Source: an uncultured Enterobacterales bacterium
GTDB taxonomy: Bacteria > Myxococcota_A > UBA796 > CAJQPC01
Assembly (NCBI GenBank): GCA_964604165.1
Contig: CAZRYF010000013.1
Location: forward strand, 3,408 to 67,407
Direction of reading: 5' to 3'
DNA length: 64,000 nt
The notes beneath the pieces were generated by a model, which ran no database searches, was not told the origin of the DNA, and saw only the letters and a program-made list of their open reading frames with translations. Below, piece after piece: positions 2,646 to 60,803 of the stretch. A program made the translations under genes and the position numbers. Numbering within the stretch: position 1 is the first letter of the stretch; every line of letters starts with the position of its first letter.

Positions 2646-2681
2646 GGGGCACGACGCTACCACGCCCGGGGGAGGCCGGAT

Positions 2682-9303: not shown

Positions 9304-9316
9304 TAGGCTTTCTCAC

Positions 9317-11725: not shown

Positions 11726-11730
11726 ATCAC

Positions 11731-12942: not shown

Positions 12943-13061
12943 CATACGTGTCGCGCCCCAGGCGCTTTTCACGTTGTGTTACGGGGTGGTTTGGCGTGAT
13001 TCCAGGTATTTGAGCGGGGGCGCGACCTTTGCGTTGGGTGTTTACAACCCCAGGAGATCCT

Positions 13062-13525: not shown

Positions 13526-13595
13526 GTCCCAAAGGGGACCCGGATCTCGCCCCGCCCGCTCCTCTCGGATACCCACCCGGGAGGAGCGGTTGCGT

Positions 13596-24802: not shown

Positions 24803-24808
24803 AGACAG

Positions 24809-25693
24809 GTGGAACGCCCCTCTCCTGCCCGTGCCTGGTGGTTGGCCCTACGTCCCGCCACACTCTGGGCCGGGGCGGTGCCGGTGGGGGTGGGGGCTGC
24901 CGTGGCCGTGCAAGCGGGCGTGTTTGCCTTGTGGCCGGCCCTGGCCGCGCTCCTGGGGGCCCTGTTGATCCAAGTGGGCTGCAACCTCGCCAATGACACC
25001 TTCGACTTTGCCCGGGGGGCTGACACGCCGGACAGGCTGGGGCCGGCCCGGGCCACGCAGAAGGGCTGGCTCACCCCGGCGCAGGTGGCCAGGGGGGCGG
25101 GCGTTTCCCTGTTCCTGGCCCTGCTTGTGGGCGTGTACCTGGTGGCGGTGGGGGGATGGCCCATTCTGTGGGTGGGGGTGGCCAGCTTGATCTCGGCGGT
25201 GGCGTACACAGGTGGACCCTTTCCACTGGGGTACCACGGCTTGGGGGACCTCTTCGTGCTGGTGTTTTTCGGGTTTGTGGCGGTGTGTGGGACGGTCTGG
25301 GTCCAAGGCCTGGTGGTTCCCCAGGCTGCCCTCTACGCGGCACTGCCGGTGGGGTCGCTGGCCACGGCGATCTTGGTGGTGAACAACCTTCGTGATCGGC
25401 ACACGGATGCGGTGGCGGGCAAGAGAACGCTAGCGGTGCGCCTGGGTGTGCGAGCCACCCGGCTGGAGTACGTTCTTTTACTGGCGGCTGCCTTTGCCTC
25501 GTTGCCGCTTGGGTGGGCCCTTGGAGACCTTCATCCGGGCTGGATGCTGCCACTTCTGTGTCTCCCCCTGGCCCGGCGGGAAATTCGTGGGGTCCTTGGA
25601 CGAGATGGGGCAGCGCTGAACGCGCACCTGGCAGGGACCGCCAGGTTGGAGCTTGTGTTCGGGCTTCTTCTCGCCCTGGGGATGAACCTGTGA
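24809..25693 (+). CDS. menA: 1,4-dihydroxy-2-naphthoate polyprenyltransferase (UbiA family)
   Basis: Polytopic membrane protein with [14 protein letters not shown] and [19 protein letters not shown] motifs. Confidence 0.8.
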
Positions 25694-26712
25694 GCGGATT
25701 GAGCGTCGCTCTTCGCCACTGGTCCTCTCCGTTGGTCCATCCGCTAAAGACCGGGTGGGGGACGGTGTCCCATCGAGAAGGGTGGTGGGTCACCCTCCGG
25801 GACCCAGAGGGACGCGCGGGGGTTGGGGAGCTGGCGCCCCTGCCCGGTTTCTCAAGAGAGCGCCCCGAGGAGGCTCGACAGGCGGTGGAATGTGTCGATT
25901 CAGCCCGGCTGGATCTCGCCTCTCCCGTGGAGTCTCTGATTGGCCTGGACTTGCCGGCTGCTGCTTCCCACGGAATCGAGCAGGCGCTGTGGGATCTCCT
26001 GGGGCAACAGGAGGGACACACGGTCTGCGCACTTTTGGGGGGTGAAGAGGCGTCGAGTATCTCCGTTTCTCGTCTTGTTCGGGATGCCCAAGAGGCAGCG
26101 TCGGCGGTGAAGGCCGGATGCGGCTGCCTGAAGCTCAAGGTGGGTGCAGCTCCCTTGGGGGAGGACGTGGAGAGAGCTGCAGGGGTGCGCCAGGCGGTGG
26201 GGGGCGGGGTTGCCATTCGCCTGGATGCAAATGGCGCCTGGTCGCTGGAACAGGCAAGAGAGGCGCTGGATGGGTTTGCCTTTCTGGACATTGAGCTGGT
26301 GGAGCAGCCCCTCGCTACGTTGGCATCCCCTGGGGATTGGGCCTTGTTGCGGGGGGCGAGGATTCCATTGGCGGTGGACGAGTCCTTGCCGGTGACCCCG
26401 GACCTGGATGGGCTCTTGGATGTGGTGGATGTGGTGGTACTCAAGCCCATGTTGCTGGGGGGGCTCCTGCCGACCGTGCAGCTGGGACGGCGTGCCATGG
26501 CGGCCGGGTGCAAGGTGGTGGTGACCTCTTTGTTGGAGTCCGGCGTGGGACGTCACGGGGCTCTTCATGTGGCGGCAGCCTTGAAGGGGGAGAAGCTGCT
26601 GGCCTGCGGGTTGGACACTGGCGGCTTGCTCCAGCGGGATCCTTGTAGGGGTCCCGTGGTGAGAGAGGGGAAGATGACCGTATCGGGGCCGGGTTTGGGG
26701 TTGCCGAGATGA
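25690..26712 (+). CDS. menC: o-succinylbenzoate synthase (enolase superfamily)
   Basis: GTG 25690 overlaps the menA TGA. The sequence shows CLKLKVG, IRLDANGAWS, IELVEQP and AVDESL. Confidence 0.75.
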   Translation: MSGLSVALRHWSSPLVHPLKTGWGTVSHREGWWVTLRDPEGRAGVGELAPLPGFSRERPEEARQAVECVDSARLDLASPVESLIGLDLPAAASHGIEQALWDLLGQQEGHTVCALLGGEEASSISVSRLVRDAQEAASAVKAGCGCLKLKVGAAPLGEDVERAAGVRQAVGGGVAIRLDANGAWSLEQAREALDGFAFLDIELVEQPLATLASPGDWALLRGARIPLAVDESLPVTPDLDGLLDVVDVVVLKPMLLGGLLPTVQLGRRAMAAGCKVVVTSLLESGVGRHGALHVAAALKGEKLLACGLDTGGLLQRDPCRGPVVREGKMTVSGPGLGLPR

Positions 26713-28049
26713 GCGCTCTTCTTCCTCCCCTGGTGGCAGCGGCTCGCGCCCGTCCGGAGGCCTTGGCTCTTCGCTTTGGTGGAGAGACGCTGACCTACGA
26801 GGAGCTTCGAGCGGCTGCCGCTGAGGGAGCGGGGACCCTGGCGTCCATGGGGCTAGGGCCGGGCAGTCGCGTGGCCCTTGTGGGGGCGCCCTCCCTGGAG
26901 TGGGTCAAGACCTTCCATGCGGTGGGGTGGTTGGGCGCCATTGCGCAGCCTGTGTCCCACAAGCTTCCAAAGCCGGCGTTGGACGACTTGCTGAGCCGGT
27001 TTGCACCGGATCGGGTGTTGGTGGGGGAGGCGTTGGCCTTGGCGCCCAGCGATCCGCAGCCGGTGCGGCTGTGGCCGGCCTCAGAGACGCGCATCGAGCT
27101 GGCAAGCTCTGGCACGGGCGGACAGCCAAAGCGGGTCTCTCTGGACGGTCGGCAGATCTTTTTCAGCGCTGTGGCCTCCGCCTTGCGCTTGGGACACTCT
27201 CCTGGCGATGTCTGGCTCGACTGCCTTCCGCTGCACCATGTCGGCGGCCTCTCCATTCTCTTGCGGTGTGCCTGGTATGGCACATGCGTGGCCTTGCACG
27301 ATGGGTTTGATGTGACACAGGTTCGGGATGGAATTCACTCGGGTGGTGTGTCCCAGGTTTCTCTCGTGCCGACCCAGCTGGAGCGGCTCCTGGAACATGG
27401 GCTGCAGACCCACGAGAACCTCCGCTTTCTCCTGGTGGGAGGGGCGCCCCCGTCCAGGTCTCTCCTGGAGAACTGCGCAACCCGCGATCTGCCGGTGGCG
27501 ATATCCTGGGGCATGACCGAGACCGCCTCCCAAGTGGCCACTCGACTTCCTGGGGATCTCGCCCCCTTGTCGGCAGGCTGTCCACCCTTGTCCTTTGTGG
27601 AGTTGGAGGTGGAGGGGGGGGCGCTGGTGGTGAGCGGCCCACTGGCACCGGGAGGCAGGATTCGCACCTCGGATGCGGGCTGGGTTCGCGGGGGTCGGGT
27701 GGGGGTGACGGGGCGTGTGGATGACATCATCCTCTCCGGGGGGGAGAACGTGGATCCCCTCTCCATCGAACAGGCCCTGAGCGCCCACCCGGGGGTGCGG
27801 GAGGTGTTGGTGGTGGGACGAGACGATGCCCAGTGGGGCCAGAGGCCTGTGGCCTGGCTGGTGGCGGCTGGGGATCTGCAGCCGGGTTCCTCCGAGCTGA
27901 CGGAATGGTGTCGGGAGAGGCTGCCGGCCTTTGCGGTTCCGGATGCTTTTCGCTGGTGTGATGCTCTGCCCAGAACCGATCTGGGCAAGCCGTCACGTGC
28001 CCGGGTCCGAGAACTCGAGGCCAGCCTTTCGAAGAGCGGGTGCGAATGA
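26709..28049 (+). CDS. menE: o-succinylbenzoate-CoA ligase
   Basis: ATGA overlap with menC. Adenylate-forming motifs are present: SSGTGGQPKRV, WGMTETAS and GRVDDIILSGGENV. Confidence 0.8.
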   Translation: MSALLPPLVAAARARPEALALRFGGETLTYEELRAAAAEGAGTLASMGLGPGSRVALVGAPSLEWVKTFHAVGWLGAIAQPVSHKLPKPALDDLLSRFAPDRVLVGEALALAPSDPQPVRLWPASETRIELASSGTGGQPKRVSLDGRQIFFSAVASALRLGHSPGDVWLDCLPLHHVGGLSILLRCAWYGTCVALHDGFDVTQVRDGIHSGGVSQVSLVPTQLERLLEHGLQTHENLRFLLVGGAPPSRSLLENCATRDLPVAISWGMTETASQVATRLPGDLAPLSAGCPPLSFVELEVEGGALVVSGPLAPGGRIRTSDAGWVRGGRVGVTGRVDDIILSGGENVDPLSIEQALSAHPGVREVLVVGRDDAQWGQRPVAWLVAAGDLQPGSSELTEWCRERLPAFAVPDAFRWCDALPRTDLGKPSRARVRELEASLSKSGCE

Positions 28050-28421
28050 CGCCGGAACCGAGCGTGCACGAAAGGTGGTTGTGTCCAGGAACGCATGGGT
28101 CAGGCGCACAAGGACCCGGTGGACGCCGTCTTCCCCGTCCACTGAGTAGGAGAAGGTTACCGAGCTGTTTCCGAGTCGCGCTACCGTCACGGTGATCAAC
28201 ACGGTCTCCCCCAGCCTCAAAGGGGCTGCGTAGTCGGCTTCCGACCGCACCACTGGCATGCCCCACCCTTCCTCGTTGATGACAAATCCAAGGGGAATTC
28301 CTCCGGTCGCCAGCAGAACCTCAAAGGCTTCGTGGCACATTTCGTAGACCCGGGAGAAAAATGCAATCCCGGCGCTGTCCACGTGGGCGAAACGGATGGT
28401 GTAGGGGTGTTGAAAGCTCAT
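27993..28421 (-). CDS. 4HBT/YbgC-type hotdog acyl-CoA (or acyl-ACP) thioesterase
   Basis: MSFQHPYTIRFAHVDSAGIAFFSRVYEMCHEAFE is the typical 4HBT N-terminus. ATGA overlap with the upstream PPTase (28418-28421). The 3' end overlaps menE convergently by 57 nt. Confidence 0.8.
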   Translation of the reverse strand: MSFQHPYTIRFAHVDSAGIAFFSRVYEMCHEAFEVLLATGGIPLGFVINEEGWGMPVVRSEADYAAPLRLGETVLITVTVARLGNSSVTFSYSVDGEDGVHRVLVRLTHAFLDTTTFRARSVPASFAPALRKAGLEFSDPGT

Positions 28422-29095
28422 GGGGTTGGGGTAACCCAGCGGACGTTGGGCACCACCTTGCCCGCGTGCGTTTCTTGAGCAGGCATGGCGAGGGTTGTCA
28501 CCTGGTCCTCAGGGCTGGCCACCCGCTCTACGTCCCAGGACCTGCCCGAGGGAGAGACGAGCCGCCACGGCCCTGGGCCGGCCAGGACGGCGGAGGCATC
28601 CAGGGCAGCCAGTTCGGCGGCGATCCCACACCCTTCCGCCTTGAGTACGGCCTCCTTTGCGGTCCAAAGAGCCAGGAACGTGCGAGGGTCTGCCCACGAG
28701 CTATCCTGCTCATTTGGGTGAAAAAAACGTCTCGCCAGGGCCTCCCCATCGGGAATCTCTCGGACACGCTCCACGTCAATTCCCAAGGCGCTCACCGCTG
28801 CACTTGCCATCCACCAGGCGTTGCCGCAGTGGGAGGTGCTGAAGGCCCTTGTGGAGTCGGGCATCTGTGGTTGACCGGTCAGGGAGTGGGTCCAGTGGAC
28901 TTTGTCTGGCGGGCAACCCAGGAGAGGAGCCAACAAGCCCCGGGTCAGGCGCCTTCGACGCTTCAGGCGTTCTGCCAGAAGAGGGGTGACCATGGCGGCT
29001 GCCTCGGGCAAGTCTGTGGGTCGTGACCAGGCTGTGGGAAGAGGGGTGTCCTCATCCAGATTCGCTGACCAAATCCGGACCGCATCTCCCGTCAC
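28418..29095 (-). CDS. Sfp-type 4'-phosphopantetheinyl transferase
   Basis: Frame of ORF 28418-29422. The start is GTG 29095, 5 nt after GGAGGAG, overlapping the upstream stop (GTGA). The sequence shows FSTSHCG, LGIDVERV and WTAKEAVLKAEG. Confidence 0.8.
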   Translation of the reverse strand: MTGDAVRIWSANLDEDTPLPTAWSRPTDLPEAAAMVTPLLAERLKRRRRLTRGLLAPLLGCPPDKVHWTHSLTGQPQMPDSTRAFSTSHCGNAWWMASAAVSALGIDVERVREIPDGEALARRFFHPNEQDSSWADPRTFLALWTAKEAVLKAEGCGIAAELAALDASAVLAGPGPWRLVSPSGRSWDVERVASPEDQVTTLAMPAQETHAGKVVPNVRWVTPTP

Positions 29096-29877
29096 GGGTT
29101 CTCCTCCTGCAGCAGCTCGCCGCTCTCCACCCACCGCTGAAGAGTACGTGCGGCCGAGAGCATCTCCTGTCCATCTACGATGAAGTGATCGCAGATCATT
29201 CCTACCCCCAGGAGGCGGCGGATCTCTACTTTGCCGTGTCGAGCGACTGGTTTTCGCTCCACGAACCCAGGAAAAAATGCGACAGCCGTGTTGGCGTAGG
29301 CGTGAAAGCTGATCGGTCCTTTTCCGACACCTGCCACTGGAGAAATGCCGTAGGTTCCGTAGAGGTTTGAGTAAAAGGAGGGGCTGCTTCGGGTGCGCCA
29401 GCTGACGAGGCGGAGGATCCACGGGGGCAAGGAACGAAGTCGATCCACCCGTTGAAAGTCAGGCAGGTCCGACAGGGGCGCCGTGCGGGCATGCCGTAGG
29501 GTTCTCTGAATCTGCTCCATTGTGAGGTTGTTTACGTGTCTAAGCAGAAGGGGGTACAACGCCTTCTCTCCCTGGTCGTTCCTTCGTTGGACAATGACCG
29601 TGCAATGGATGGAGTTGAACTGCACAAGTCGTTTTCGGAACCCACTGTGGAAGAGGTGGCGATTCAGGCCTGGGTACTCCTCAAGAAGTCTTGCTGTGGC
29701 CAGAATCAGGTAGGCAGTGAGACCTACCCGGCGACCGCCTCGGCGTGCAGATCGCAAAGCCTCCAAAGTGTCGGTGACGTCGTACTCCCAGCCGGTGGAA
29801 ACCGGTGCATGGAAGCGCTGGGATCGACGCACAAGGGAGTAGATGATCTCCCGTTCGCCAAACCTGGTCTCCTTCAT
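29092..29877 (-). CDS. stand-alone 2-oxoacid dehydrogenase E2-type acyltransferase catalytic domain protein
   Basis: 261 aa with no lipoyl or subunit-binding domain. The sequence shows GLTAYLILATARLLEEYPGLNRHL and the catalytic block MICDHFIVDGQEM (DHxxxDG). Confidence 0.7.
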   Translation of the reverse strand: MKETRFGEREIIYSLVRRSQRFHAPVSTGWEYDVTDTLEALRSARRGGRRVGLTAYLILATARLLEEYPGLNRHLFHSGFRKRLVQFNSIHCTVIVQRRNDQGEKALYPLLLRHVNNLTMEQIQRTLRHARTAPLSDLPDFQRVDRLRSLPPWILRLVSWRTRSSPSFYSNLYGTYGISPVAGVGKGPISFHAYANTAVAFFPGFVERKPVARHGKVEIRRLLGVGMICDHFIVDGQEMLSAARTLQRWVESGELLQEENP

Positions 29878-31019
29878 GCGCCCCCCTCGCCGTACGTGGC
29901 CAGCAGCTCTCGAAACATGCGTCGTTCCAGTACCTCGGTGCTTCCCTCGTAGATCGTGGTCTGACGCGCATCCCGGAACCGCTTCTGAATGGGGTAGTCC
30001 CCGCGAATTCCGCGCCAGCCCATGAGTTGCACCACCGTGTGGGTGGCGTCCTCGGCGAGTTTGGAGGAGAGCAGCTTGGCGATAATGGCTTGGCGGGAAA
30101 ACGGTTGGCCAGCATCCAGCCGGCGGGTCGCATCATGAAGCACCGCGCGGGCGGCCTCCAGGCGGGCAAAAAGCGCCCCCAGTTGCATTTGCACATGGGA
30201 GAGCTCGAACAGGCGCCCCCCGTGCACCTCCCTTTCCTGGATCCAGGGCAGGGCCACGTTCAACGCCCCTTGCACCAGCCCGAGAATGATCGCCCCGCCC
30301 CCCACACGCATGGTGTCCAGAGAGGGAAGCAGCAGGTCAATGCCGGACCCAAGGGCGCCGATCCGGTTCTCGTCTCCCACCTCCACTTGAAAGGAGATGG
30401 GCGGCGTGGGAAGGGCTCGGAACCCCAGCTTGTCCGGGTTTTCTCCCACCTTGACGCCGTCGCCTCGAGGCACGGCAAAGAACGTGGGTCCCAGGGAGCG
30501 CCCTCCATCAAGCGCCTGGGCCAGCACCAGGTACAGGGTGGCGTGGGTGCCGTTTCCCACCATGCACTTCTCTCCCTCCAGTACCCATCCGCTTTCTGTG
30601 CGCCGTGCGGTGGTTTGAATCTCCAACAGGTTGGAACCACTGGAGTCTGGCTCTGTCATGCAGAGAGAAGCCTGTTTCCCGTCCTGGATGGTTGTCGCAA
30701 CAAGTCGCTCCATCTGTTCCGTTGTCCCCCCCCGGAGAAGCGGCACCAGGGAGCCGTGGTTGAAACCGAGACTAAAGGCAATGGGGGCACAGGTCGCGGC
30801 CAGGATCTCCCCTGCCTCCACCAGCTCCATAAAGGGCTGCCCCTGACCTCCAAGGTGCTCTGGCAGGCTTCGGTTCACCAGTCCCTGTCGGAAAGCGGCT
30901 GCGTGGACAGACTCGGCAAACCGGTTCTCCCGATCGTAACGGTCCGTCTCGGGGGCCATGACTTCTCGGGCAAAGCGCTGGCATCTTGTCTTGAAGTCTT
31001 TGGGTTCCACTCGGGTCAT
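29874..31019 (-). CDS. acyl-CoA dehydrogenase family flavoprotein
   Basis: 381 aa. ATGA overlaps at both ends (31016-31019 and 29874-29877). ACAD layout with LCMTEPDSGSN and C-terminal IYEGSTEVLERR (catalytic Glu block). Confidence 0.85.
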   Translation of the reverse strand: MTRVEPKDFKTRCQRFAREVMAPETDRYDRENRFAESVHAAAFRQGLVNRSLPEHLGGQGQPFMELVEAGEILAATCAPIAFSLGFNHGSLVPLLRGGTTEQMERLVATTIQDGKQASLCMTEPDSSGSNLLEIQTTARRTESGWVLEGEKCMVGNGTHATLYLVLAQALDGGRSLGPTFFAVPRGDGVKVGENPDKLGFRALPTPPISFQVEVGDENRIGALGSGIDLLLPSLDTMRVGGGAIILGLVQGALNVALPWIQEREVHGGRLFELSHVQMQLGALFARLEAARAVLHDATRRLDAGQPFSRQAIIAKLLSSKLAEDATHTVVQLMGWRGIRGDYPIQKRFRDARQTTIYEGSTEVLERRMFRELLATYGEGGA

Positions 31020-34000
31020 CCTTTAACGTCTGCTCGGCTTTCCTGGGCGAGCGCAGCCACCAGCGCAGCCAGCGTGGGGTGCTCAAACAAGAGCGTGGGG
31101 GGCAAATCCATTTCGAGCGCCTCTCCGAGGGCACGGGCGACCCGAACGGCCTGCAGAGAATCCATTCCGTACCGGGCAAATCGAATGTGTGATGCAACCG
31201 ACCCCGCCGGGCGGGAGAGAGCCTTGGCTACCATGGCGCGTACGGTCTGCTCCATAGGGTCGCTCATGGATGGGTCCTGGCAAGCCTCCGCAACCAGAGG
31301 AGCGGTGTCCTGCACCTCTTCCCGCTTGGCGGAGAAGTCTTGGACTTGGATGCGCAAGTGGCCACTTGCATCGAAGAGAGAGACATTCGCGCGCAGGGAT
31401 GTGGAGTCCGCGCGAAGGGGGGTGGCCAGGCGCGCGTGGGCCATGCAGGGGCCCTCCAAGGGGCCGAACACGTCCAGGCTGCCCATGGAGAACCCTAAGA
31501 AGGGGCTTGCGGTGGCGTCCCCGACCGCCAGGGTGAAGGCCGCCAGAGATTGGAAGGCGCCATCCAGCAGGCCGGGATCCAAGAGGTGGTGTCGGGCCTT
31601 CTCTCTCGGCTCCAGGTGTGCCAGGAGCTCCCACTTGCCCAGGTACACCCGGGTCAGGGTTTGCAAGCGGGGCCCATGGACCATCCCTGTTCGCTCCAGG
31701 CGTTGAAGGATTTCCTCCACGGGAATCTGTGAGGTGCAGTTCCGTCGAATCCCATCCAGATCCTGGACGGGCGCTACCCGCACCTGGGTGACCCGTTTCG
31801 CACTCAGGTGGGCCACCCACTCGCCCGTCCTTTCCCGGCTCTCCAGAGTCCACTGACCGTCCTCTCCTTCTACGGCCCGAAGTCGCTTCAAGTCCCCCTC
31901 CTGAAGCTGGAAGGACCGCATGATCCACACGTCTTGAAAACGGGCGGTGTCCGGGCGCCCCGCAAGCTTGGCCAGGCGGTCCAGCATCCAGGACCCGGGG
32001 GCGATGCTGCGACCCTGGGCCCGGTGATCCCGAATCAGGGGGTCGGTCTCGAGGGAGACCAGTTGGCCGCCAGTGGACCGCTGCGGTGCGGCGGCCTGGG
32101 GTGCTGTGAGGTTGAAGTGCAGTCCGGCGGGTCGCAGATCCCGGCGTTGGTGGGGATAGGGAGAACGAACGGTCGGCAGCAAGGGGTCCACTGGCTGAAC
32201 GCGGTGCCAGTTCGGATTTGCTCCCTGCTCGTAGAGGTCCGCCAGCGCCTGCAGAAGGGGGCTGGATTCACCCTCGCGCAGCAAGGGAATCGCTTGTTCT
32301 CCCGCGCTCTCAATGGCGCTGGAGAGCACCGCTCGTGCGCCCAGTTCCACGAACACGGTGGCGCCCTCGCGGCCCAGGCGGGAGATGGTGCGTCCGAAGT
32401 CGACGGTGCCGGTGACCTGGTCCTGCCAGTACGCGGTCGGGATTTCCTCCATGGGACGGGCATGCAGGGACGACCAGAAAGCCAGGTGGGGTCGGAGGGG
32501 GGCTCGATCCAAAAGGGCAGCGGACAGGGCTGCCTTCACCGGGGCCATCCAGCGTGAATGGGCGGCGCAGCCCACCGGAAGGGGACGACACACAAGTCCG
32601 TTCTCAGAGAGGAGCCTGGTGGCGTATTTGATGGGCTGGGCGGGGCCGGAAAAGACGCATTGATCCGGGGCGTTTCGGGCTGCGAGATCCAGGTCGATTC
32701 CTGCTCCTTCAAGCAGAGCCCGCGCTCTCTCTTCCGCACCCAGTACTGCCACCATTCCGCCAGGCGAACAGGCCGCCATGGCCTCTCCTCGCAGTACCGA
32801 GAGCGCCATCCCCTGGGCTGGATCCAGGGCGCCGCTTACACAGGCGGCCACCAGCTCACCGGCGCTGTGACCCACGACGGCGTCGGGCTGGATTCCCAAT
32901 CGTTCCAGCGTTTTTGAAAGAGCGAGTCCTGTCGCAAAAACAAGTGGCTGCGCATGGGCGATGGTGTGGTTTTTCTGTTGCAACAATTCTATCAGGTCAA
33001 AAGGAAGCCCTTTGCTCAAGGAACCGAACTCTTCGCGAAAGACCGGGGAGGACTCCAGGAGGCGGAGTACGCGCTGGGGGTGTTCTGAACCGGGGCCCGG
33101 AAAGGCGAAGACCACCCTCCTCGCCTGGGATCGTGCGTTTCGTTGTCCAGAGGAGAGAGCGACCAAGGCCTCTTCCAAGCCTGCCCGCGACTCCACCACG
33201 GTGGCACTTCTCCACCCGTGGCGGGGTGCCCCGCGTGCCCAGGAAGCAACGAGGTGGTGCAGGGGAAGAGAGTCGCCTCTCTTCAACTCAGCGAGCCGCG
33301 CCGTGGCCACCTGTCGCATGGCAGCAGGGGAGGGGGCTGAGAGGGCGAGGACCTGTCCTGAGAGGGACGCCTCTGGGGCCATGGAGGTCTGAGGTGCGTC
33401 GGCCAGGACCAGGTGGCAGTTCGTACCGCCGACCCCAAAGGCGCTGATTCCTACCCGCCGGGGTTCGGTCGTGCGAGGCCAGGCCAAGGGAGCGAGCACA
33501 GGCTGGAGAAGGGGGCTGGGAAGACGATCGGAGCGGGCGGTTGCGCCGGCGATGGGGGGAATCTGCTCGTGTTGGAAGGCAAGCAGCACCTTCCAGAGAG
33601 ATGCGGCGCCCGCTGCTCGCTGCAGGTGGCCCACGTTGGACTTGGCGCTGCCAAGGGGCAAAGGGCGGTCTCGGTTGTCCAGCCACCGGGTCAGCACCGA
33701 GGCCTCCACCGCATCCCCGATGGGGGTGCCGGTGCCGTGGCATTCGATCCAGTCGGCTTCACCCGGGTGACGGCCTGCCTGTGCCCAGGCCGCTGACAGA
33801 ACCGCCTCTTGTCCCGCGGGGTTGGGGGAGAGGCGGCTGGCGGCGCCTCCATCATTGTTGACCGCGCTTCCCGCCACAACGGCCAACACCCGGTCGCCTT
33901 CCGCCAGGGCTCGCTCCAGGGGCTTGAGCATCACCAACCCTCCACCTTCTCCCGGCACGAAGCCATCGGCCCCAGCTGAAAACGGAGTGCAGGCACCGGT

Positions 34001-37000
34001 CTTGGAGAGGACCCCCGCCCTCCCGAGAAGAATGTGGCTGATAGGAGTAAACAGAAGCTCCACCCCCCCGGCGATGGCGGCCTCACACTCGCCCTGCACC
34101 AAGGCCCTGCAGGCCAGGTGAATGGCCACAAGAGAGGAGGCGCATGCAGCCTGAATGACCACAGCGGGGCCTTCCATGCCCAAGGTGCTGGCGAGGCGTG
34201 CGGCTGCCATGTTGTCGGTGACGCTGCTCAAGGTCTCAGAGAGATCCAGGGAGCCGGAGTTCAAGCCTTCCAGAAGCTGGCGGCGATCGAGAAAGGTATC
34301 GCCCTGGCACACGTAGACGCCCAACTTCTTGGGGGAGCAACCGGTGTGATCCAGGAGATCAGTGGCCAGCTCCAGCAGAAGACGCTGGTGTGGATCAATG
34401 CTGCGGGCCTCTCTCTCTGAGGCTCCAAACGGCTCGGGATCAAAATGGAAGGGGCGGGGGAGCCAGGCGCCAAAGGTGGTCTCGTCGCCTGGGTGCAGGC
34501 CGGGGTCCCAGCGGTCAGAGGGGAGCGGGCCAAAGCTGGCGTGGCCTCCTGAGAGAAGCTGCCAGAAGGCGTCGCCGTCTTCTGCGCCCGGCAAGCGACC
34601 TGCCACACCCACAATGGCAATGGCCCCTCCAGGAGACGGCATCTGTACCGTCGAGGTCGTGGGCGCAGTGGGGGCAGCAACCGACTCCGCCTCCTCCCGA
34701 ATGCGCTCGACCATGTCCAAGGGGGTCTGCACCCCCTCCACCACCCGGTGAGAGAGGTTTCGTTGGAGCGCGGCCTCCAGCAGGGCGTGGATTCGCGCGG
34801 CCTGGATAGACCGACCCCCCAGGGATCGAAAGGTGCTCTGCGGGTGGATCACGCCGGCGGGCAGGGCCAGCACCTCTTGCCAAGCACTGAGAACTTGCTG
34901 GAGAAGGTCGTCGGGTTGAGTGGGCTCCGGATCTGTTCGCCGCGAGGCGACTCCTTCCAAGCGCTGCCGCAGCTTGTGGCGCTGGGTCTTTCCGCTGGAG
35001 GTTCGGGGTATTTCTCTTCTGTGGACTTGTTCCAGGGAGGCAATGCGAAGCCCGAATGTCTGGCCGATCCGTTCTCGCAATGCTTGTTCCCCGGCGGCGT
35101 CCAGGCGTGCAGGCTGGACGACGAAAAGCGCCAGGCAATCCCGGCCATCCCGGTGAAAACCCGTCGCCACAACGCTTCTGGGTCCAAGTCCGGGCAGCGA
35201 TGCTGCCACCCGTTCCACGTCTTCCATCCACAGGTTCTCCCCTTCCAGGCAGATCCGGTCCGCACGCCGTCCCACGACAAACAGGTGTCCCTCGGCCATG
35301 CATCCGTCATCCCCGGTGTTGATCCAGTCTGGGGATCCCAGGCAACGCCCTGGGGATCTCACTTGGATTTGCCCTCGAATGGTCTCGGAAACCTCGGCTC
35401 CATCGGCATCCACCACGCGGACTTCCACCCCCTCCAGGGGGGCTCCCAAGTCCACCAGCTCCATTCCCTCCTCGAATTCCCGCCATGCAGGGATCTCTCC
35501 GGGCCGGGACAACGTGACACACAGAGTCGCTTCGGCCAGGCCGTACCCCGGGCACAGGGCCTCCGGTCGGAATCCCGCGGGCTCGAACCGATCAAGAAAC
35601 GCCCTTAGGGTGGCGCTGGAGATGGGCTCCGCCCCATTGAGCAAGCAGCGCACACCTGAGAGGTCCAGGCCCGTGACGTCTGGGATCATTTTTGTGACAT
35701 GTGCCAGGCCAAAGTCAGGGCTTGCAGTGCAGCTTATTTTATGTTTCGAGATCCGGGAGAGCCACTCTCTGGGTCGTCGCACAAAATGCCCGGGCTCCAT
35801 CAGCACCTGGTTTGCACCCGTGGCCAGTGGGAGAAGGTGGTAGCCGATGAGCCCCATGTCGTGATGAAGAGGCAACCAGCTTAAGAACTGCGCTTCGGGC
35901 CCTTCTGTTCGGGCAGCGACAATGGAGTCGATGTTGTGGAGAATGCCCCGGTGGGTAAGGCCAAGTCCCTTGGGGCGGCCGGTTGTGCCCGAGCTGAACT
36001 GCACCAGGGCTGCGGCTTTCGGGTTGCCCTCCCAAGGTGGGCCGGGCTCTCCTTTTTGTAGAGATTGCAAGGAGTCCCCGCGGATCACCATGGGGTTGTC
36101 CAGGGAAGATCGAAGGATGGAAGCGTCCTTGACGATGGAGGGTAGCGCACCCTCCAGGAGACAGGCCCAGAAAACCCCCACCGTGTCGGGAAGCCCCATC
36201 CCCTCCAGCAGCACGCTCCTCCTGGGGGCCAGGCCGTTCTGCTGGAGGTGGGCCCGAATGGACTGGGCTCGTTCAAACAACGCCGGGTAGCTCTCCAACC
36301 GGTCCGGAGCCCCGACGGTGAGGTACCGAATTCCCTTGTTCGGGTGGTCTCTCATCGTCTGACGGAAGCGAGAAACCAAGGTCTCCCCCCCAGCGATTGA
36401 CGTGCTTTCTGCAAACCCGGGTGCCCAGATGCGGGTGTGGCGGAACGAGGTGTCCGTCGCAAGCTCCTGTCCGTGGGGGAGATGCCAAAGGCCCGGTGCT
36501 TCCAGGAGCTGGCTTTGGCCGGGGAAGACCTGATCCAGGAGGTTCCGTGTGGTGTGCAGGCCCCATGCGTGGGGCAGGGCCCGCTCCACGTGCAGTCGAA
36601 AGGCCTGGGCCAGGAGGGATCGCTCGTCCGAGTCGAGGTCCAGTGCCTTGAGGTGGGCCAGGTCCGTGGGAATGTGCTGTGCCTCTTCCCGGGCGTGGAG
36701 CCGGTGGGCCGCTGCCCAGGTGGGCTGGATAGGGACGGACTCCTCCTGAAGCGCCCGGTGAAAAAAGAGCGTCCACTCCTCAAAGAACAGGGTCGCAGTC
36801 CAGAACAGGTGGTGCTGCTGCCCTGCGGACTCGTAGCCCTCCAGGGAGAAAGGAGCCTTTAGAACGGCGCGGCTCTCGTCTGCGCAGTCGTCAAAGGACT
36901 CGGACCATCCGGGGAACCGGCATCGCAGACGCCTCGCCAGCTCCTGAAACATCGCGATGTGCCGGGTTTCCTCCAGGCAGAGGTCCGTCACGCAGGCCTG

Positions 37001-37282
37001 GTTCAGCCCCTCTTCTCTTGTGAACGCCAGAATGTGCTCCTCAAAGGAGCAGAAGGCCTCGCAAATGGAGAGAGCCACCGAACCTTGCACGCAGGTTCGG
37101 GCCTCCGGGGTGAGCCTCTCCAAGTGGATTCCCAGTCGTTGGGCGAGCTTTGGTCCCAGGAAATCTCCGGGATCCTCCCACTGGTCCCAAGGAACATCCG
37201 ACTCCACATCAAAGCGGTAGTGGAGGGACCGTCCGTGCAGGGGAGCACAGAGTGCTTTCAGGTTCTTGTACGGGTCGGCCAC
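31016..37282 (-). CDS. 2088-aa hybrid megasynthase: di-iron oxygenase-like domain, FAAL, ACP, KS, AT, DH, ACP
   Basis: Single uninterrupted ORF. Domain motifs are listed in the sub-features below. I recognised no KR, ER, TE, R or C domain. Confidence 0.9.
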   Translation of the reverse strand: MADPYKNLKALCAPLHGRSLHYRFDVESDVPWDQWEDPGDFLGPKLAQRLGIHLERLTPEARTCVQGSVALSICEAFCSFEEHILAFTREEGLNQACVTDLCLEETRHIAMFQELARRLRCRFPGWSESFDDCADESRAVLKAPFSLEGYESAGQQHHLFWTATLFFEEWTLFFHRALQEESVPIQPTWAAAHRLHAREEAQHIPTDLAHLKALDLDSDERSLLAQAFRLHVERALPHAWGLHTTRNLLDQVFPGQSQLLEAPGLWHLPHGQELATDTSFRHTRIWAPGFAESTSIAGGETLVSRFRQTMRDHPNKGIRYLTVGAPDRLESYPALFERAQSIRAHLQQNGLAPRRSVLLEGMGLPDTVGVFWACLLEGALPSIVKDASILRSSLDNPMVIRGDSLQSLQKGEPGPPWEGNPKAAALVQFSSGTTGRPKGLGLTHRGILHNIDSIVAARTEGPEAQFLSWLPLHHDMGLIGYHLLPLATGANQVLMEPGHFVRRPREWLSRISKHKISCTASPDFGLAHVTKMIPDVTGLDLSGVRCLLNGAEPISSATLRAFLDRFEPAGFRPEALCPGYGLAEATLCVTLSRPGEIPAWREFEEGMELVDLGAPLEGVEVRVVDADGAEVSETIRGQIQVRSPGRCLGSPDWINTGDDGCMAEGHLFVVGRRADRICLEGENLWMEDVERVAASLPGLGPRSVVATGFHRDGRDCLALFVVQPARLDAAGEQALRERIGQTFGLRIASLEQVHRREIPRTSSGKTQRHKLRQRLEGVASRRTDPEPTQPDDLLQQVLSAWQEVLALPAGVIHPQSTFRSLGGRSIQAARIHALLEAALQRNLSHRVVEGVQTPLDMVERIREEAESVAAPTAPTTSTVQMPSPGGAIAIVGVAGRLPGAEDGDAFWQLLSGGHASFGPLPSDRWDPGLHPGDETTFGAWLPRPFHFDPEPFGASEREARSIDPHQRLLLELATDLLDHTGCSPKKLGVYVCQGDTFLDRRQLLEGLNSGSLDLSETLSSVTDNMAAARLASTLGMEGPAVVIQAACASSLVAIHLACRALVQGECEAAIAGGVELLFTPISHILLGRAGVLSKTGACTPFSAGADGFVPGEGGGLVMLKPLERALAEGDRVLAVVAGSAVNNDGGAASRLSPNPAGQEAVLSAAWAQAGRHPGEADWIECHGTGTPIGDAVEASVLTRWLDNRDRPLPLGSAKSNVGHLQRAAGAASLWKVLLAFQHEQIPPIAGATARSDRLPSPLLQPVLAPLAWPRTTEPRRVGISAFGVGGTNCHLVLADAPQTSMAPEASLSGQVLALSAPSPAAMRQVATARLAELKRGDSLPLHHLVASWARGAPRHGWRSATVVESRAGLEEALVALSSGQRNARSQARRVVFAFPGPGSEHPQRVLRLLESSPVFREEFGSLSKGLPFDLIELLQQKNHTIAHAQPLVFATGLALSKTLERLGIQPDAVVGHSAGELVAACVSGALDPAQGMALSVLRGEAMAACSPGGMVAVLGAEERARALLEGAGIDLDLAARNAPDQCVFSGPAQPIKYATRLLSENGLVCRPLPVGCAAHSRWMAPVKAALSAALLDRAPLRPHLAFWSSLHARPMEEIPTAYWQDQVTGTVDFGRTISRLGREGATVFVELGARAVLSSAIESAGEQAIPLLREGESSPLLQALADLYEQGANPNWHRVQPVDPLLPTVRSPYPHQRRDLRPAGLHFNLTAPQAAAPQRSTGGQLVSLETDPLIRDHRAQGRSIAPGSWMLDRLAKLAGRPDTARFQDVWIMRSFQLQEGDLKRLRAVEGEDGQWTLESRERTGEWVAHLSAKRVTQVRVAPVQDLDGIRRNCTSQIPVEEILQRLERTGMVHGPRLQTLTRVYLGKWELLAHLEPREKARHHLLDPGLLDGAFQSLAAFTLAVGDATASPFLGFSMGSLDVFGPLEGPCMAHARLATPLRADSTSLRANVSLFDASGHLRIQVQDFSAKREEVQDTAPLVAEACQDPSMSDPMEQTVRAMVAKALSRPAGSVASHIRFARYGMDSLQAVRVARALGEALEMDLPPTLLFEHPTLAALVAALAQESRADVKG
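31019..31270 (-). other. megasynthase domain 7 (aa ~2005-2088): carrier protein 2
   Basis: FARYGMDSLQAVRVARAL, with Ser2042 as the attachment site. Confidence 0.85.
31328..32080 (-). other. megasynthase domain 6 (aa ~1735-1985): PKS-type dehydratase
   Basis: HxxxGxxxxP motif = H1753RAQGRSIAP, and DxxxQ motif = D1907GAFQ. Confidence 0.8.
32213..33121 (-). other. megasynthase domain 5 (aa ~1388-1690): acyltransferase
   Basis: VVFAFPGPGSE, GHSAGELVAA (Ser1473) and PVGCAAHSRWM (His1575, with a non-canonical CAAH specificity motif). Confidence 0.85.
33383..34630 (-). other. megasynthase domain 4 (aa ~885-1300): ketosynthase
   Basis: IAIVGVAGRLPGA, QAACASSLVAIHLA (Cys1047), ECHGTGTPIGD (His1182), SNVGHLQRAAG (His1219) and GVGGTNCHLVL. 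Confidence 0.9.
34688..34915 (-). other. megasynthase domain 3 (aa ~790-865): carrier protein 1
   Basis: FRSLGGRSIQAARIHALLE, with Ser825 as the attachment site. Confidence 0.8.
34958..36385 (-). other. megasynthase domain 2 (aa ~300-775): fatty acyl-AMP ligase (FAAL)
   Basis: VQFSSGTTGRPKGLGLTHRGIL, WLPLHHDMGLIG, LNGAEPI, GYGLAEATL and TSSGKTQR. Confidence 0.85.
36413..37225 (-). other. megasynthase domain 1 (aa ~20-290): ferritin-like non-haem di-iron carboxylate domain, AurF-like ligand pattern
   Basis: Candidate ligands are E75 (SICEAF), E105xxH108 (LEETRHI), E168/E169 (FFEEW) and H196xxxE200xxH203 (HAREEAQH, codons at 36674-36697). The spacing 30/63/31 compares with about 35/60/31 recalled for AurF E101, E136xxH139, E196, H223xxxE227xxH230. 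Confidence 0.6.
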
Positions 37283-37290
37283 GAGCGAAC

Positions 37291-38955
37291 CTACCTCGCC
37301 TGGATGGTGTCTGGGGAGATCTCCAGGCCTGTGCTTTCCCAGAGCATCTTGGCAAGGGGAAGAAGCTTGAACTGGGACTCCCAGGCCCGCTGGTCCACAT
37401 CGGAAGTCTCCACTGTCTGGGGATCCAGGGCCCTGGCCACGGTCTCGTAAGGAAGCTGCACCGCGCGAAATCCGTTCAGTCGATCGCTCGCACGCTTGGC
37501 CTTGTACTCAGCGTTGAGTGTGAGCAGCGACCGATCAAAGTCCAGTGCAAGGGCCTCCAGGTCCATGGTGGGCGGCGGCTTCTTTGTCGTGGCAACGATC
37601 AGGACGTAGCCCGGATTTGGAAACAGTCCCTCTACCGCGGGGGGCCGAGAGGGCAGTACGGTGAATTGCAATTCCCGAAGGTCGTGGCGCCTACAGCAGG
37701 CGTCCCAGGCCAATTCAAGTTGTTCTCCCGTGAGCTTTTCCCCCGTAAAGGAAAAGGCGAGGCCCCGGCGTCGGACAAACCGCAGGTCGGGAAGCCCATC
37801 CACAAACCGATGGCAGCGAAAGACGTCCTGGGTGTCGTAGCGAACCAGACCGACGGAGTCGCTGATCACCATGGTGTAGAGCCCGTTTGGGGAGAGCTCC
37901 CAGGGGAGAAGAAGCTTGTCCGGCGCGTCCCCCTCAAAGAACTCATACAGAGTGCCCGGGTAGGCGGGTAGAAAGGCGAGGCCGTGCTGAAAGTGGTGGA
38001 CCGTCTCGATGGCTTCCGTGGACATGGAGTACATGGGGACCAGCTGAAAGCGGTTCTTGGGCAGGTGCCGGTGGAGTCGGTCCAGAAACGGCGCAACGTA
38101 TCCTCCATCCCAGCAGGTGTAGATTCGTAGAGAAGGGGCGATTTCGGAGAGGGCAAGTGGGTCGGTAGAGTGGGCGATTCGTTGAAGACGCTCTCTCCAT
38201 CCGGTGGCAAGAACCCGTCTTGCCGCTCGGGCAGCGTTCGGGTCCAGGTTTCCCGTTGCGTGGGCGCGAATGAGGGAGGTGGACTCTTCCCAGTGCTGGT
38301 CCACCTCCTCCAGAAACACCGCCAGAGTGGAGGGGTTGGTGGCATAGAGCATGCCCGGGTTCGTGAGCGCCAGCAGCCACAGCCGAGCCGCTGTGGCCCC
38401 ATGGGCCTCGACAGTGGGGGCAAGGGCGGAGGACTGAAGGAGCAGGGCCGGGGTGAGCAGGGTCATGAGCCGCGGCGGTGGGTCCTTTCCAGCCGCCAAG
38501 ATGAAGCGCGTCAGGGACGTGTCGTCCTTCAGGCTCGCGAGAATCAGCAGTCCGGCCCTCTTCAGGCCGTAGGCGCGGCTCATTCGGCAGATTGCGCTGG
38601 CATTTGCTCTTTTGATTCGGCGCACCCGGTCGGGGCTCCAGGCGATTCGCTTGGGGTCGCGTGTGGAGCCAGAGGTCTCCGCGAGCACTCCTTCCCCTTG
38701 TGCTTCCATGCGGGCACGTGTGGCTGCGTCGTATCCCTTGACCGGTACGTCAGCCCCGATCCCCAAGCGCACTGCCAGGGCTTCCTGGTCGATCCGATAC
38801 CGCGACAGGCTGGCTTGAAACTGCCATTCCAGCAGGCTCGCCAGGACTCGTCCCCCCAGGCTGCACCACCACCGAACGGACTCGTTCCAGGCAAGTGAAA
38901 CAGCATCCGCGATGCGGTCGGTGAGCGGATGTGCCATGGGGGGGGAGGGTAGCAC
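37291..38955 (-). CDS. GH3-family adenylating enzyme-like protein (paralogue 2)
   Basis: The stop lies 9 nt upstream of the megasynthase start. The start is 38955 or ATG 38937 (MAHPLTD). Motifs: ETSGSTRDPKRIAW, MYSMSTEAIE, VISDSVGLVRYDTQDVFRCHRFVDGLPDLRFVRRRGLAFSFTGEKLTGEQ (collinear with ORF 431-2056). Confidence 0.7.
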   Translation of the reverse strand: MLPSPPMAHPLTDRIADAVSLAWNESVRWWCSLGGRVLASLLEWQFQASLSRYRIDQEALAVRLGIGADVPVKGYDAATRARMEAQGEGVLAETSGSTRDPKRIAWSPDRVRRIKRANASAICRMSRAYGLKRAGLLILASLKDDTSLTRFILAAGKDPPPRLMTLLTPALLLQSSALAPTVEAHGATAARLWLLALTNPGMLYATNPSTLAVFLEEVDQHWEESTSLIRAHATGNLDPNAARAARRVLATGWRERLQRIAHSTDPLALSEIAPSLRIYTCWDGGYVAPFLDRLHRHLPKNRFQLVPMYSMSTEAIETVHHFQHGLAFLPAYPGTLYEFFEGDAPDKLLLPWELSPNGLYTMVISDSVGLVRYDTQDVFRCHRFVDGLPDLRFVRRRGLAFSFTGEKLTGEQLELAWDACCRRHDLRELQFTVLPSRPPAVEGLFPNPGYVLIVATTKKPPPTMDLEALALDFDRSLLTLNAEYKAKRASDRLNGFRAVQLPYETVARALDPQTVETSDVDQRAWESQFKLLPLAKMLWESTGLEISPDTIQAR

Positions 38956-60742: not shown

Positions 60743-60803
60743 CTCGTCAACCCGGCTGCCATTCGGATACAACGGAGGGCACAAGCAGATTGGAGACTGG
60801 ACC

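Follow-up and report, generated by a model that had tools for sequence, protein, structure and literature searches.

Introduction

Among the described pathways close to the locus analyzed in this work, a run of six genes on the minus strand (27993-38955, about 11 kb) of contig CAZRYF010000013.1 from an uncultured bacterium placed in the Myxococcota_A, are the cyanobacterial olefin synthase Ols and the mycobacterial FadD32/Pks13 system. [quoted passage not shown] The same arrangement can be recognized in the megasynthase encoded by the second gene of the run, which is a polyketide synthase (PKS) of type I. However, Ols continues with ketoreductase (KR), ACP, sulfotransferase (ST), and thioesterase (TE) domains, and Pks13 has a TE and no dehydratase (DH), whereas the enzyme studied here starts with a di-iron domain at its N-terminus, includes a DH but neither a KR nor a release domain, and has as obligatory partners an acyl-CoA dehydrogenase (ACAD) and an acyltransferase resembling the E2 subunits of 2-oxoacid dehydrogenases. 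Since the domain sets differ (no KR, ST, or TE; DH present), the possibility of an Ols-like or Pks13-like cluster was ruled out. All the positions given below refer to the whole stretch of 64 kb that was analyzed, hereafter "the window".

Single elements of the locus also have counterparts in other systems, the nearest precedents being OlsH and the di-iron enzymes CylC and NocO. Acyl-ACP dehydrogenases operating in biosynthesis are exemplified by MbtN (mycobactin) and TcsD (the allylmalonyl unit of FK506). CylC and NocO are AurF-related di-iron enzymes whose substrates are fatty acyl chains loaded by a FAAL and tethered to an ACP (PMC8406957, PMC12101540); the signature of these halogenases consists of QExxH, HxxDExxH, the lack of the carboxylate equivalent to AurF E196, and a 3 His/3 Glu ligand set (PMC12101540). 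In Singulisphaera acidiphila, the GH3-like enzyme OlsH requires free fatty acid, ATP, and Mg, and neither CoA nor ACP, to form N-acyl-ornithine; it shares an operon with OlsG, a methyltransferase, and OlsI, an O-acyltransferase of the alpha/beta-hydrolase type, and its failure in living E. coli was put down by its authors to the scarcity of free fatty acid (PMC12493201). OlsH orthologues are recognized by at least 30% identity and at least 70% coverage to L0DAW6, together with an operon shared with OlsI (PMC12971839, PMC12493201).

An earlier reading of the window, hereafter the original prediction, described the six genes as a self-contained lipid/polyketide operon matching no characterized pathway. 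Here we report that this operon is a trimmed, compact member of a conserved, uncharacterized cluster family, which can be regarded as a variant of the lipid pathways based on a FAAL-primed single-module PKS. Its three unusual partners are a di-iron domain in cis, an ACAD together with a DH lacking a tyrosine, and an E2-type acyltransferase. Starting from an ordinary fatty acid, the operon most likely yields a modified lipid to which an amino acid is attached.

Results

Organization of the six genes

The list of open reading frames (ORFs) gives the six genes in the following order, from the GH3-like ligase to a 4HBT thioesterase, through an Sfp-type phosphopantetheinyl transferase (PPTase):

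37291-38955, minus strand: GH3-like gene (554 aa); an alternative ATG start at 38937 is possible
31016-37282, minus strand: megasynthase gene (2088 aa), with a GTG start
29874-31019, minus strand: ACAD gene (381 aa), in ATGA overlap with, and translationally coupled to, the megasynthase gene
29092-29877, minus strand: E2-type acyltransferase gene (261 aa)
28418-29095, minus strand: PPTase gene (225 aa), with a GTG start at 29095, in an ORF spanning 28418-29422
27993-28421, minus strand: 4HBT thioesterase gene (142 aa), in ATGA overlap with the PPTase gene

The direct reading of the junctions placed the ATGA overlaps at 31016-31019, 29874-29877, and 28418-28421 and the GTGA overlap at 29092-29095, exactly where the original prediction had located them. 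The sole error in that description concerned the gap between the GH3-like and the megasynthase genes, which had been given as 9 nt and which, reading TAG-gttcgctc-GTG from the stop codon of the former to the start codon of the latter, is 8 nt long (37283-37290). The start codon of the PPTase gene (GTG 29095) is not the most upstream GTG of its ORF. Six identical products with the same ends were retrieved among the gene calls of NCBI, ENA, JGI, and Logan assemblies; these derive from marine metagenomes, and their longest contig measures 136 kb. No sigma-70-like promoter was found inside 27993-38955, and the terminator-like hairpins counted within it (14 vs 8.4 +/- 3.0 in shuffled sequences) are not clearly above expectation. 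The proposal of one six-gene minus-strand operon is borne out by the ORFs, by their junctions, and by the synteny found elsewhere: the six genes are a single, real operon, whose arrangement is more than chance, as the synteny seen in other organisms shows.

The GC content of the E2-like gene (0.58) and of the thioesterase gene (0.61) is lower than that of the remaining operon (0.63-0.65) and of the flanking men genes (0.67), a weak hint that these two genes might have been acquired separately.

A family of related gene clusters

The related loci were collected from the contexts of ACAD orthologues, from one metagenome scan, and from one genome scan. In the latter, genome contigs were searched with sequence alignments; one of two sequences found nothing, and one of four sequences retrieved five loci in metagenome-assembled genomes (MAGs) of Planctomycetota and one in a Kofleriaceae MAG. 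The gene content of the main loci is listed below (SDR, short-chain dehydrogenase/reductase; ER, enoylreductase; DI-PKS, PKS with the di-iron domain):

L020, unclassified, ACAD 85% identical to that of the window: KR-less PKS, ACAD, E2-like; contig end
L013, Deltaproteobacteria MAG: DI-PKS with KR, ACAD, E2-like, GH3-like, DSPc phosphatase, alpha/beta-hydrolase
L016, unclassified: DI-PKS with KR and ER, ACAD, E2-like, GH3-like, HAD
L027, Myxococcales MAG: KR-less DI-PKS, ACAD, E2-like, SDR; convergent GH3-like, Mpo1-like, and methyltransferase genes
L028, unclassified: methyltransferase, KR-less DI-PKS, ACAD, Mpo1-like, GH3-like, SDR, E2-like, HAD, START
L029, unclassified: KR-less DI-PKS, ACAD, E2-like, Mpo1-like, GH3-like; methyltransferase
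L023-L025, Planctomycetota MAGs: PKS C-terminus (DH-KR-ER), ACAD, E2-like, Mpo1-like, alpha/beta-hydrolase
L018/L022 and L019/L021, Planctomycetota: ACAD, E2-like, then Mpo1-like or PhoD
L006 and L008, unclassified: ACAD, E2-like, methyltransferase
L015, Frankia: FAAL, PKS with KR, ACAD, P450; without E2-like and GH3-like genes

The order PKS-ACAD-E2, in part of the cases followed by GH3, is shared by L013, L016, L020, L027, L028, L029, and the Planctomycetota loci L023-L025. The neighborhood is thus conserved in other organisms, a point on which the original prediction depended; on the other hand, its picture of a one-off, self-contained oddity is refuted by the occurrence of this PKS-ACAD-E2 core in at least ten other loci of Myxococcota, Planctomycetota, and unclassified metagenomes. 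The conserved core of the family is made up of the PKS, the ACAD, and the E2-like acyltransferase, and the variable shell of GH3-like, Mpo1-like, methyltransferase, SDR, and hydrolase/phosphatase genes. Within the core, the ACAD and E2-like genes are the tightest conserved pair, which had not been foreseen: of the 15 distinct loci carrying both, 14 have them side by side, L028 being the only exception. Other members of the family have a KR in cis or a neighboring SDR, as well as Mpo1-like, methyltransferase, and hydrolase genes; in the window, tblastn searches for counterparts of the SDR, Mpo1-like, methyltransferase, HAD, and alpha/beta-hydrolase proteins gave no match.

No literature description of a characterized cluster with this gene set was found, MIBiG being outside the search, and within that scope the statement that the operon matches no characterized pathway holds. 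The E2-like, di-iron, and GH3-like proteins are not represented by any NCBIfam model. Word-index searches with the E2-like and di-iron proteins gave one or two relatives each, which reflects a limit of sensitivity; the near-uniqueness that they seemed to indicate was overturned by the HMMER search described below (158 relatives) and by the ACAD-anchored contexts.

A few observations on the collected loci can be added. The Mpo1-like gene (DUF962, PF06127) is frequent in the family (L018, L022-L025, L027-L029); yeast Mpo1 is a 2-hydroxy fatty acid dioxygenase. In L019 (1-221 and 10001-11999) the ACAD-E2 pair lies about 10 kb downstream of a gene for a 3171-aa protein with a terminal ER-like domain, and three Ser/Thr kinase genes are located between them. 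An E2-like homologue (36% identity) without a PKS or an ACAD was found in a metagenome contig (L009, 5259-6080), next to Coq4-like and carboxymuconolactone-decarboxylase-family genes and an ABC/HlyD exporter, and an equally similar copy is carried by the Kofleriaceae MAG (L026, 669-1379); as loci of a presumably different context without a PKS, both were set aside from the family. A further candidate, L012, was discarded, as it carries a genuine E2 of the branched-chain 2-oxoacid dehydrogenase (BCKDH) type with its E1 genes.

Domain architecture of the megasynthase

The domains of the megasynthase are listed below; Pfam scores are in bits and, where two values are given here or in the following sections, the second one is the curated cut-off (gathering score).

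36398-37282, minus strand: AurF-like ferritin-like di-iron domain (residues 1-295; Pfam AurF 34.0/29.6)
34973-36397, minus strand: FAAL domain (residues ~296-770; Pfam AMP-binding 139 bits)
34673-34942, minus strand: first ACP, ACP1 (residues ~781-870; PP-binding), with its serine in LGGRS
33533-34642, minus strand: KS (residues ~881-1250; ketoacyl-synt 222 bits, Ketoacyl-synt_C 110 bits)
32273-33127, minus strand: AT (residues ~1386-1670; Acyl_transf_1 125 bits)
31298-32182, minus strand: DH-fold domain of a KR-less subtype (residues ~1701-1995; PS-DH 66.5 bits)
31019-31267, minus strand: second ACP, ACP2 (residues ~2006-2088; PP-binding at 2012-2078; GMDSL), C-terminal, with no release domain after it

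All seven domains recognized by the original prediction, in the order di-iron, FAAL, ACP, KS, AT, DH, and ACP, are confirmed at the Pfam level, the FAAL as an AMP-binding domain. This probable FAAL domain, which directly precedes an ACP, possesses the core adenylation motifs SSGTTGRPKG, GYGLAE, TGD, and SSGK; its best NCBIfam matches are the FAAL families PRK09192, MbtM, and FadD32, all under cut-off (for PRK09192, 224 vs 600). The Cys-His-His triad of the KS is intact (AACASS, HGTGT, SNVGH), and the AT exhibits GHSAGE and a FabD-like AAHS motif, according to which it is probably malonyl-specific. Both catalytic motifs of the DH are present, namely HRAQGRSIAP (HxxxGxxxxP) and LLDGAFQ (DxxxQ). 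The features of a type I PKS module (KS triad, GHSxG of the AT, serine of the ACPs, and DH motifs) are therefore all found, except for the tyrosine of the YGP motif of the DH. No KR, TE, reductase (R), or condensation (C) domain was detected by Pfam in the megasynthase, in agreement with what had been stated for these domains and for the two DH motifs; indeed, there is no room for a KR, because the DH ends at about residue 1995 and ACP2 starts at residue 2006.

The di-iron domain

The N-terminal domain exceeds the gathering score of the AurF/CmlI family (PF11583) and has the 3 His/4 carboxylate set of that family. The ligand positions E81, E105, H108, E168, H196, E200, and H203 are at least 97% conserved among 127 relatives, Glu168 being kept in 123 of them; with EExxH and HxxEExxH, they make up a 3 His/4 Glu set that agrees with the published arrangement of AurF. 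The AlphaFold2 (AF2) model of the domain is a helical bundle (pLDDT 59), and the fold search carried out with this low-confidence model gave weak matches, all of them ferritin-like (R2, CmlI, R2lox, and stearoyl-ACP desaturase; E=0.035 for CmlI), a kind of comparison that cannot tell oxygenases, desaturases, and halogenases apart. Sequence searches of the PDB with the single di-iron sequence and with a 25-sequence profile returned nothing significant and did not reach AurF/CmlI.

An exhaustive HMMER search retrieved 158 representatives of the di-iron domain among 1.84 billion proteins. The domain parsing of the 150 that are listed revealed 74 stand-alone proteins, mostly of about 300 aa, and fused forms for the others, namely FAAL-DI(-ACP), DI-FAAL-ACP, and DI-FAAL-ACP-KS-AT-DH-(KR)-ACP-(ER), the fusion in cis to FAAL-ACP being found in the window protein and in most long relatives; nearly all the proteins that are not fused have a size suited to a place next to FAAL/ACP/PKS modules. 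The context of the domain is therefore that of FAAL, ACP, and PKS proteins and not that of aminoarene biosynthesis, and, since about half of the 150 listed relatives are fused to such domains, an acyl-ACP substrate is implied, like the one demonstrated for the distantly related CylC and NocO (PMC12101540).

What reaction might be catalyzed on this substrate? The window domain resembles CylC and NocO in that it is ferritin-like, AurF-related, and expected to act on a FAAL-loaded, ACP-tethered acyl chain, and the partnership with a FAAL and an ACP that is typical of CylC-type enzymes is indeed observed. This raises the idea that the domain might be a dimetal halogenase of the CylC/NocO type, chlorinating the ACP1-bound chain before its extension and leading to a halogenated lipid. 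Besides the relatedness of the CylC-type enzymes to AurF and their action on FAAL/ACP-activated fatty acyl chains, this idea is in agreement with the existence of a few deltaproteobacterial CylC-type homologues (PMC8406957, PMC12101540) and with the marine, thus chloride-rich, source indicated by the sample names. However, the window domain is fused in cis to FAAL-ACP-PKS, and it has EExxH, HxxEExxH, and a fourth conserved Glu, unlike CylC and NocO, which have an open site with QExxH and HxxDExxH; the CylC-type motifs, compared through their published description (PMC12101540), are not found in it. Since the published halogenase signature is missing, oxygenase or desaturase chemistry appears more likely than halogenation, and we regard a chlorinated product as very improbable.

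The missing KR and the DH-fold domain

The KR-less architecture DI-FAAL-ACP-KS-AT-DH-ACP is not restricted to the window, being found in about nine representative clusters as well as in L020, L027, L028, and L029. The DH domains of 14 members (the window, L013, L015, L016, L020, L027-L029, P0130, P0136, P0142, P0160, P0173, and P0180) were aligned. All 14 sequences retain the catalytic His and Asp; the tyrosine of the YGP motif is found in every one of the five members with a KR and in none of the nine without it, where H, L, I, M, or V takes its place (MVHGP in the window protein). A stand-alone SDR gene lies beside two of the KR-less loci (L020, L027-L029), and none was found at L029 or in the window.

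The recurrence of this architecture and the conservation of the catalytic residues rule out a recent deletion or decay as the origin of the KR-less state, and the pattern of substitutions argues for a re-purposed functional subtype of the DH fold rather than a decaying remnant. The replacement of the tyrosine could mark a role of the DH fold that is independent of a KR, although its presence in all the KR-less members may go back to a single evolutionary event.

The ACAD and the E2-like acyltransferase

The calls of an ACAD and of a free-standing E2-type acyltransferase were both substantiated by Pfam, motifs, and profiles. The ACAD has all three Pfam domains (N, M, and C) and the catalytic Glu in TIYEGSTE, as expected for the family. 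Its orthologue group comprises about 95 clusters at 44-55% identity, after which identity falls sharply to 33%, and the nearest named relatives belong to MAGs labeled "Myxococcota", "Myxococcales", and "Deltaproteobacteria". In 10 loci the ACAD gene directly follows a PKS gene, usually overlapping its stop codon. MbtN and TcsD are flavoenzymes of the ACAD fold that are encoded next to FAAL/ACP or PKS genes and desaturate an acyl chain bound to a carrier. Like them, the window protein stands next to such genes; unlike them, it matches the MbtN model of NCBIfam weakly (46 bits, cut-off 700) and is closer to short/branched-chain acyl-CoA dehydrogenases, one of which is its nearest PDB structure (E=4.5e-56).

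The E2-like protein (Pfam 2-oxoacid_dh, PF00198, 39.3/23) shares with E2 catalytic cores the fold, the DHxxxDG motif, and the catalytic serine; the DHxxxDG motif and the serine in GTYG(I/L)S are invariant in eight homologues. A profile of the eight homologues retrieved E2 catalytic cores from the PDB (E=6e-18), and for an AF2 model built from two sequences (pLDDT 62) the top 50 Foldseek matches are all E2 cores (best E=6.5e-11). It differs from them in consisting of the catalytic domain alone (261 aa), no lipoyl or peripheral-subunit-binding domain having been detected in it, and in the absence of E1 or E3 genes from the operon flanks. On these sequence features, the protein is E2-like and not an E2 subunit, and its belonging to a 2-oxoacid dehydrogenase complex was ruled out. 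To our knowledge, no E2-type enzyme has been recognized as a PKS partner. The nearest functional parallel might be that of PapA5-type enzymes, in that a PKS-bound chain could be released in trans by acyl transfer, even though PapA5 belongs to the condensation-domain branch and the window protein to the E2 branch.

The close association of the two genes might also be read in a different way, that is, as an ACP-to-CoA shuttle in which the E2-like enzyme would move the chain between the pantetheine arm of the PKS and CoA, the ACAD would act on the acyl-CoA, and the product would feed general lipid synthesis, the GH3-like enzyme being optional. Thiol-to-thiol transfer is the ancestral chemistry of E2 enzymes, whose fold and motifs are retained here; the tight ACAD-E2 pairing extends to the Planctomycetota loci without GH3, and the similarity of the ACAD to genuine short/branched-chain acyl-CoA dehydrogenases points in the same direction. 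Nevertheless, the overlap of the ACAD gene with the PKS stop codon in most loci suggests an action on the PKS-bound chain, a GH3 gene is present in six loci of the Myxococcota-type clusters, and the operon encodes no CoA-dependent downstream enzyme, so that such a shuttle seems improbable to us.

The GH3-like ligase

In the GH3-like protein, GH3_M passes its Pfam threshold (40.1/23.6), the GH3 N-terminal domain is borderline (23.9/23.6), and GH3_C fails (19.5/23.6); at the level of profile thresholds, the GH3 assignment of the original prediction thus stands for the first domain and, narrowly, for the second, and does not for the third. The three nucleotide-binding motifs are present as TSGSTRDPK, PMYSMSTE, and GLVRYDTQD, to be compared with SSGTSxGxxK, YGSSE, and GLYRYRLGD of reference GH3 proteins (PMC12493201); in five homologues linked to such clusters (36-46% identity) they are fully or almost fully conserved, with core residues invariant in all six proteins. 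The profile of these six sequences retrieved plant GH3 structures from the PDB (E=2e-13). The protein appears to belong to a divergent, PKS-associated GH3 subfamily. The window contains a second, canonical GH3 gene on the plus strand (353-2056; GH3 N-terminal, 146 bits), whose product is 29% identical to the GH3-like protein of the operon and which is followed by a family-2 glycosyltransferase gene (2442-3827, plus strand); these two genes may represent a separate aminolipid or glycolipid route.

For the amidation that the GH3-like enzyme might carry out, we infer by analogy that OlsH is a direct bacterial precedent: it is a bacterial GH3-like enzyme performing the ATP-consuming amidation of a free fatty acid, and the window protein has the same three motifs. 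Moreover, hydrolase and methyltransferase genes, as in the OlsH/OlsI/OlsG set, recur across the wider PKS cluster family. The two systems differ in that OlsH takes ordinary fatty acids as substrates, without any partner of the PKS, ACAD, E2-like, or di-iron kind, and in that the window protein belongs to a divergent subfamily, with an N-domain score of only 23.9 bits.

This likeness can be carried further, toward an acyloxyacyl aminolipid similar to ornithine lipids. According to this idea, the GH3-like enzyme would join an ordinary 3-hydroxy fatty acid with an amino acid into a lyso-aminolipid, and the E2-like enzyme, as the release enzyme of the PKS, would move the tailored PKS chain from ACP2 onto its hydroxyl or amine, as OlsA/OlsI do, the thioesterase being an editing enzyme or unrelated. 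In fact, no member of the PKS family has a release domain in cis, and almost every locus has the E2-like gene alongside the PKS. The histidine of the HxxxDG motif serves both O- and N-acyl transfer in the superfamily of E2 and chloramphenicol acetyltransferase (CAT). The alpha/beta-hydrolase and methyltransferase genes that recur in L013, L023-L025, L006, L008, and L027-L029 echo the OlsH-OlsG-OlsI operon (PMC12493201), but the window operon has neither of them, and E2 catalytic domains are known for thiol-to-thiol transfer and not for ester formation. On balance, we consider an acyloxyacyl product unlikely.

The PPTase, the thioesterase, and the men operon

The Sfp-type PPTase and the 4HBT thioesterase are likewise corroborated by gathering scores and motifs. 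The former (Pfam ACPS 54.2/25) has GIDVE and WTAKEAVLK and finds in HetI its best NCBIfam match, under cut-off; the latter (4HBT_2 38.5/25.5, 4HBT 36.4 bits) is a hot-dog protein of the YbgC type with the N-terminal Asp motif HVD, whose NCBIfam matches are generic YbgC/FadM-type acyl-CoA thioesterase models, all far under cut-off. Neither protein was detected in the other family loci, although the contig of L020, the closest relative, stops before the corresponding position. Since OlsH needs free fatty acid, a dedicated thioesterase beside a GH3-like gene would be sensible.

The thioesterase gene also marks the border with a men operon on the plus strand (19935-28049: polyprenyl synthase, UbiE/MenG, MenF, MenD, MenA, MenC, and MenE), which converges on the PKS operon, so that menE and the thioesterase gene overlap tail-to-tail by 57 nt at their 3' ends. 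This raises the question of whether the thioesterase might instead be the 1,4-dihydroxy-2-naphthoyl-CoA (DHNA-CoA) thioesterase of menaquinone synthesis, merely co-transcribed with the PKS operon, and not the PKS release enzyme. Known DHNA-CoA thioesterases are hot-dog 4HBT proteins, no other candidate for this step was seen in the window, and the gene, located at the end of the men operon, has no homologue in any other locus of the PKS family. Against this assignment, it lies on the strand opposite to the men genes and overlaps the stop codon of the PPTase gene by ATGA; MenB, too, was not seen in the window, the men genes being scattered anyway; and the NCBIfam matches remain generic. A role in menaquinone synthesis is in our opinion a rather remote prospect.

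Discussion

A possible pathway and its weak points

We infer each chemical step of the following scheme from sequence features. The Sfp-type PPTase would activate ACP1 and ACP2, and the FAAL would adenylate a free fatty acid and load it onto ACP1, where the AurF-like di-iron domain might oxidize the tethered chain in cis with O2, hydroxylation or desaturation being likelier than halogenation. The KS and the AT would then extend the chain by one malonyl unit, so that ACP2 would carry a 3-oxoacyl chain. The PKS-coupled ACAD might introduce a C=C bond beside the thioester, and the DH-fold domain lacking the tyrosine might isomerize or hydrate the enoyl intermediate rather than dehydrate the product of a KR. 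Because the PKS has no release domain, the chain should leave in trans, either through the E2-like enzyme, which would hand the acyl group of the pantetheine thiol over to an acceptor or to CoA, or as free acid through the 4HBT thioesterase, or by both ways. Finally, as in the case of OlsH, the GH3-like enzyme may adenylate the free acid and couple it with an amino acid or amine, yielding an N-acyl amino-acid-type lipid.

To the idea that a FAAL-primed single-module type I PKS tailors a fatty acid and that amidated release gives an N-acyl amino-acid-type lipid we assign an even chance. The functional inference of the original prediction is thus a reasonable one, and the OlsH precedent and the conserved synteny give it a firmer footing. 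In its favor, the catalytic residues are intact in the KS, the AT, the ACPs, the DH (His and Asp), the ACAD, the E2-like and GH3-like enzymes, the PPTase, and the thioesterase. Several points weigh against it. The first is chemical: a free 3-oxo acid is prone to decarboxylation, which makes it difficult to arrive at a GH3 substrate without a KR, except with the aid of a housekeeping reductase. Secondly, the Planctomycetota loci keep the ACAD-E2 pair without a nearby GH3 gene, which places GH3 outside the invariant core. Thirdly, the PPTase and the thioesterase were seen only in the window operon, and the thioesterase gene abuts the men operon. In addition, the ACAD is nearest to short/branched-chain acyl-CoA dehydrogenases and not to the known acyl-ACP dehydrogenases; the choice between halogenase and oxygenase relies on published motif descriptions and not on an alignment with CylC; and both AF2 models, of the di-iron domain and of the E2-like protein, are of low confidence (pLDDT around 60).

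It is possible, albeit doubtful, that the operon embodies a new PKS logic, in which a di-iron domain acts in cis on the starter, the tyrosine-less DH and the ACAD work without a KR, and release is entrusted to an E2-type enzyme devoid of lipoyl domains, and that its product is an N-acyl amino-acid lipid of a new class, made by marine Myxococcota and Planctomycetota. The trio formed by the cis di-iron domain, the ACAD with the tyrosine-less DH, and the E2-type release enzyme is so far undescribed.

Other genes of the window

Besides the genes discussed above, the window harbors a gene for a 1914-aa protein with 19 MopE metal-binding repeats and FG-GAP repeats (39040-44784, plus strand), which diverges from the operon across 84 nt, and a second gene for a MopE/lamin-tail-domain protein (60657-62795, plus strand). 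The repeats of the 1914-aa protein and the MAG labels of the nearest ACAD relatives suggest that the host is probably a member of the Myxococcota. A stretch on the plus strand (7208-14510) contains a KS gene (7208-8425) overlapping a KS-like ORF (8422-9303), a Ser/Thr kinase gene (9164-11725), a further KS gene (11731-12942), and a FabD-like AT gene (13590-14510), and may constitute another set of genes for fatty acids or polyketides.

Conclusions

The operon is one of many orphan clusters and does not conflict with established principles. With its 11 kb and its own PPTase and thioesterase, the window version is a handy candidate for heterologous expression. If the proposed scheme is true, the PKS toolbox would gain a di-iron domain functionalizing C-H bonds in cis, a pair formed by an ACAD and a re-purposed DH, and an off-loading acyltransferase of the E2 type; moreover, the recently found bacterial GH3 amide ligases would be tied to polyketide-tailored fatty acids. 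The family lives in uncultured marine Myxococcota and Planctomycetota, and, because the lipids of these hosts are poorly known, its product could be a new membrane or signaling aminolipid.

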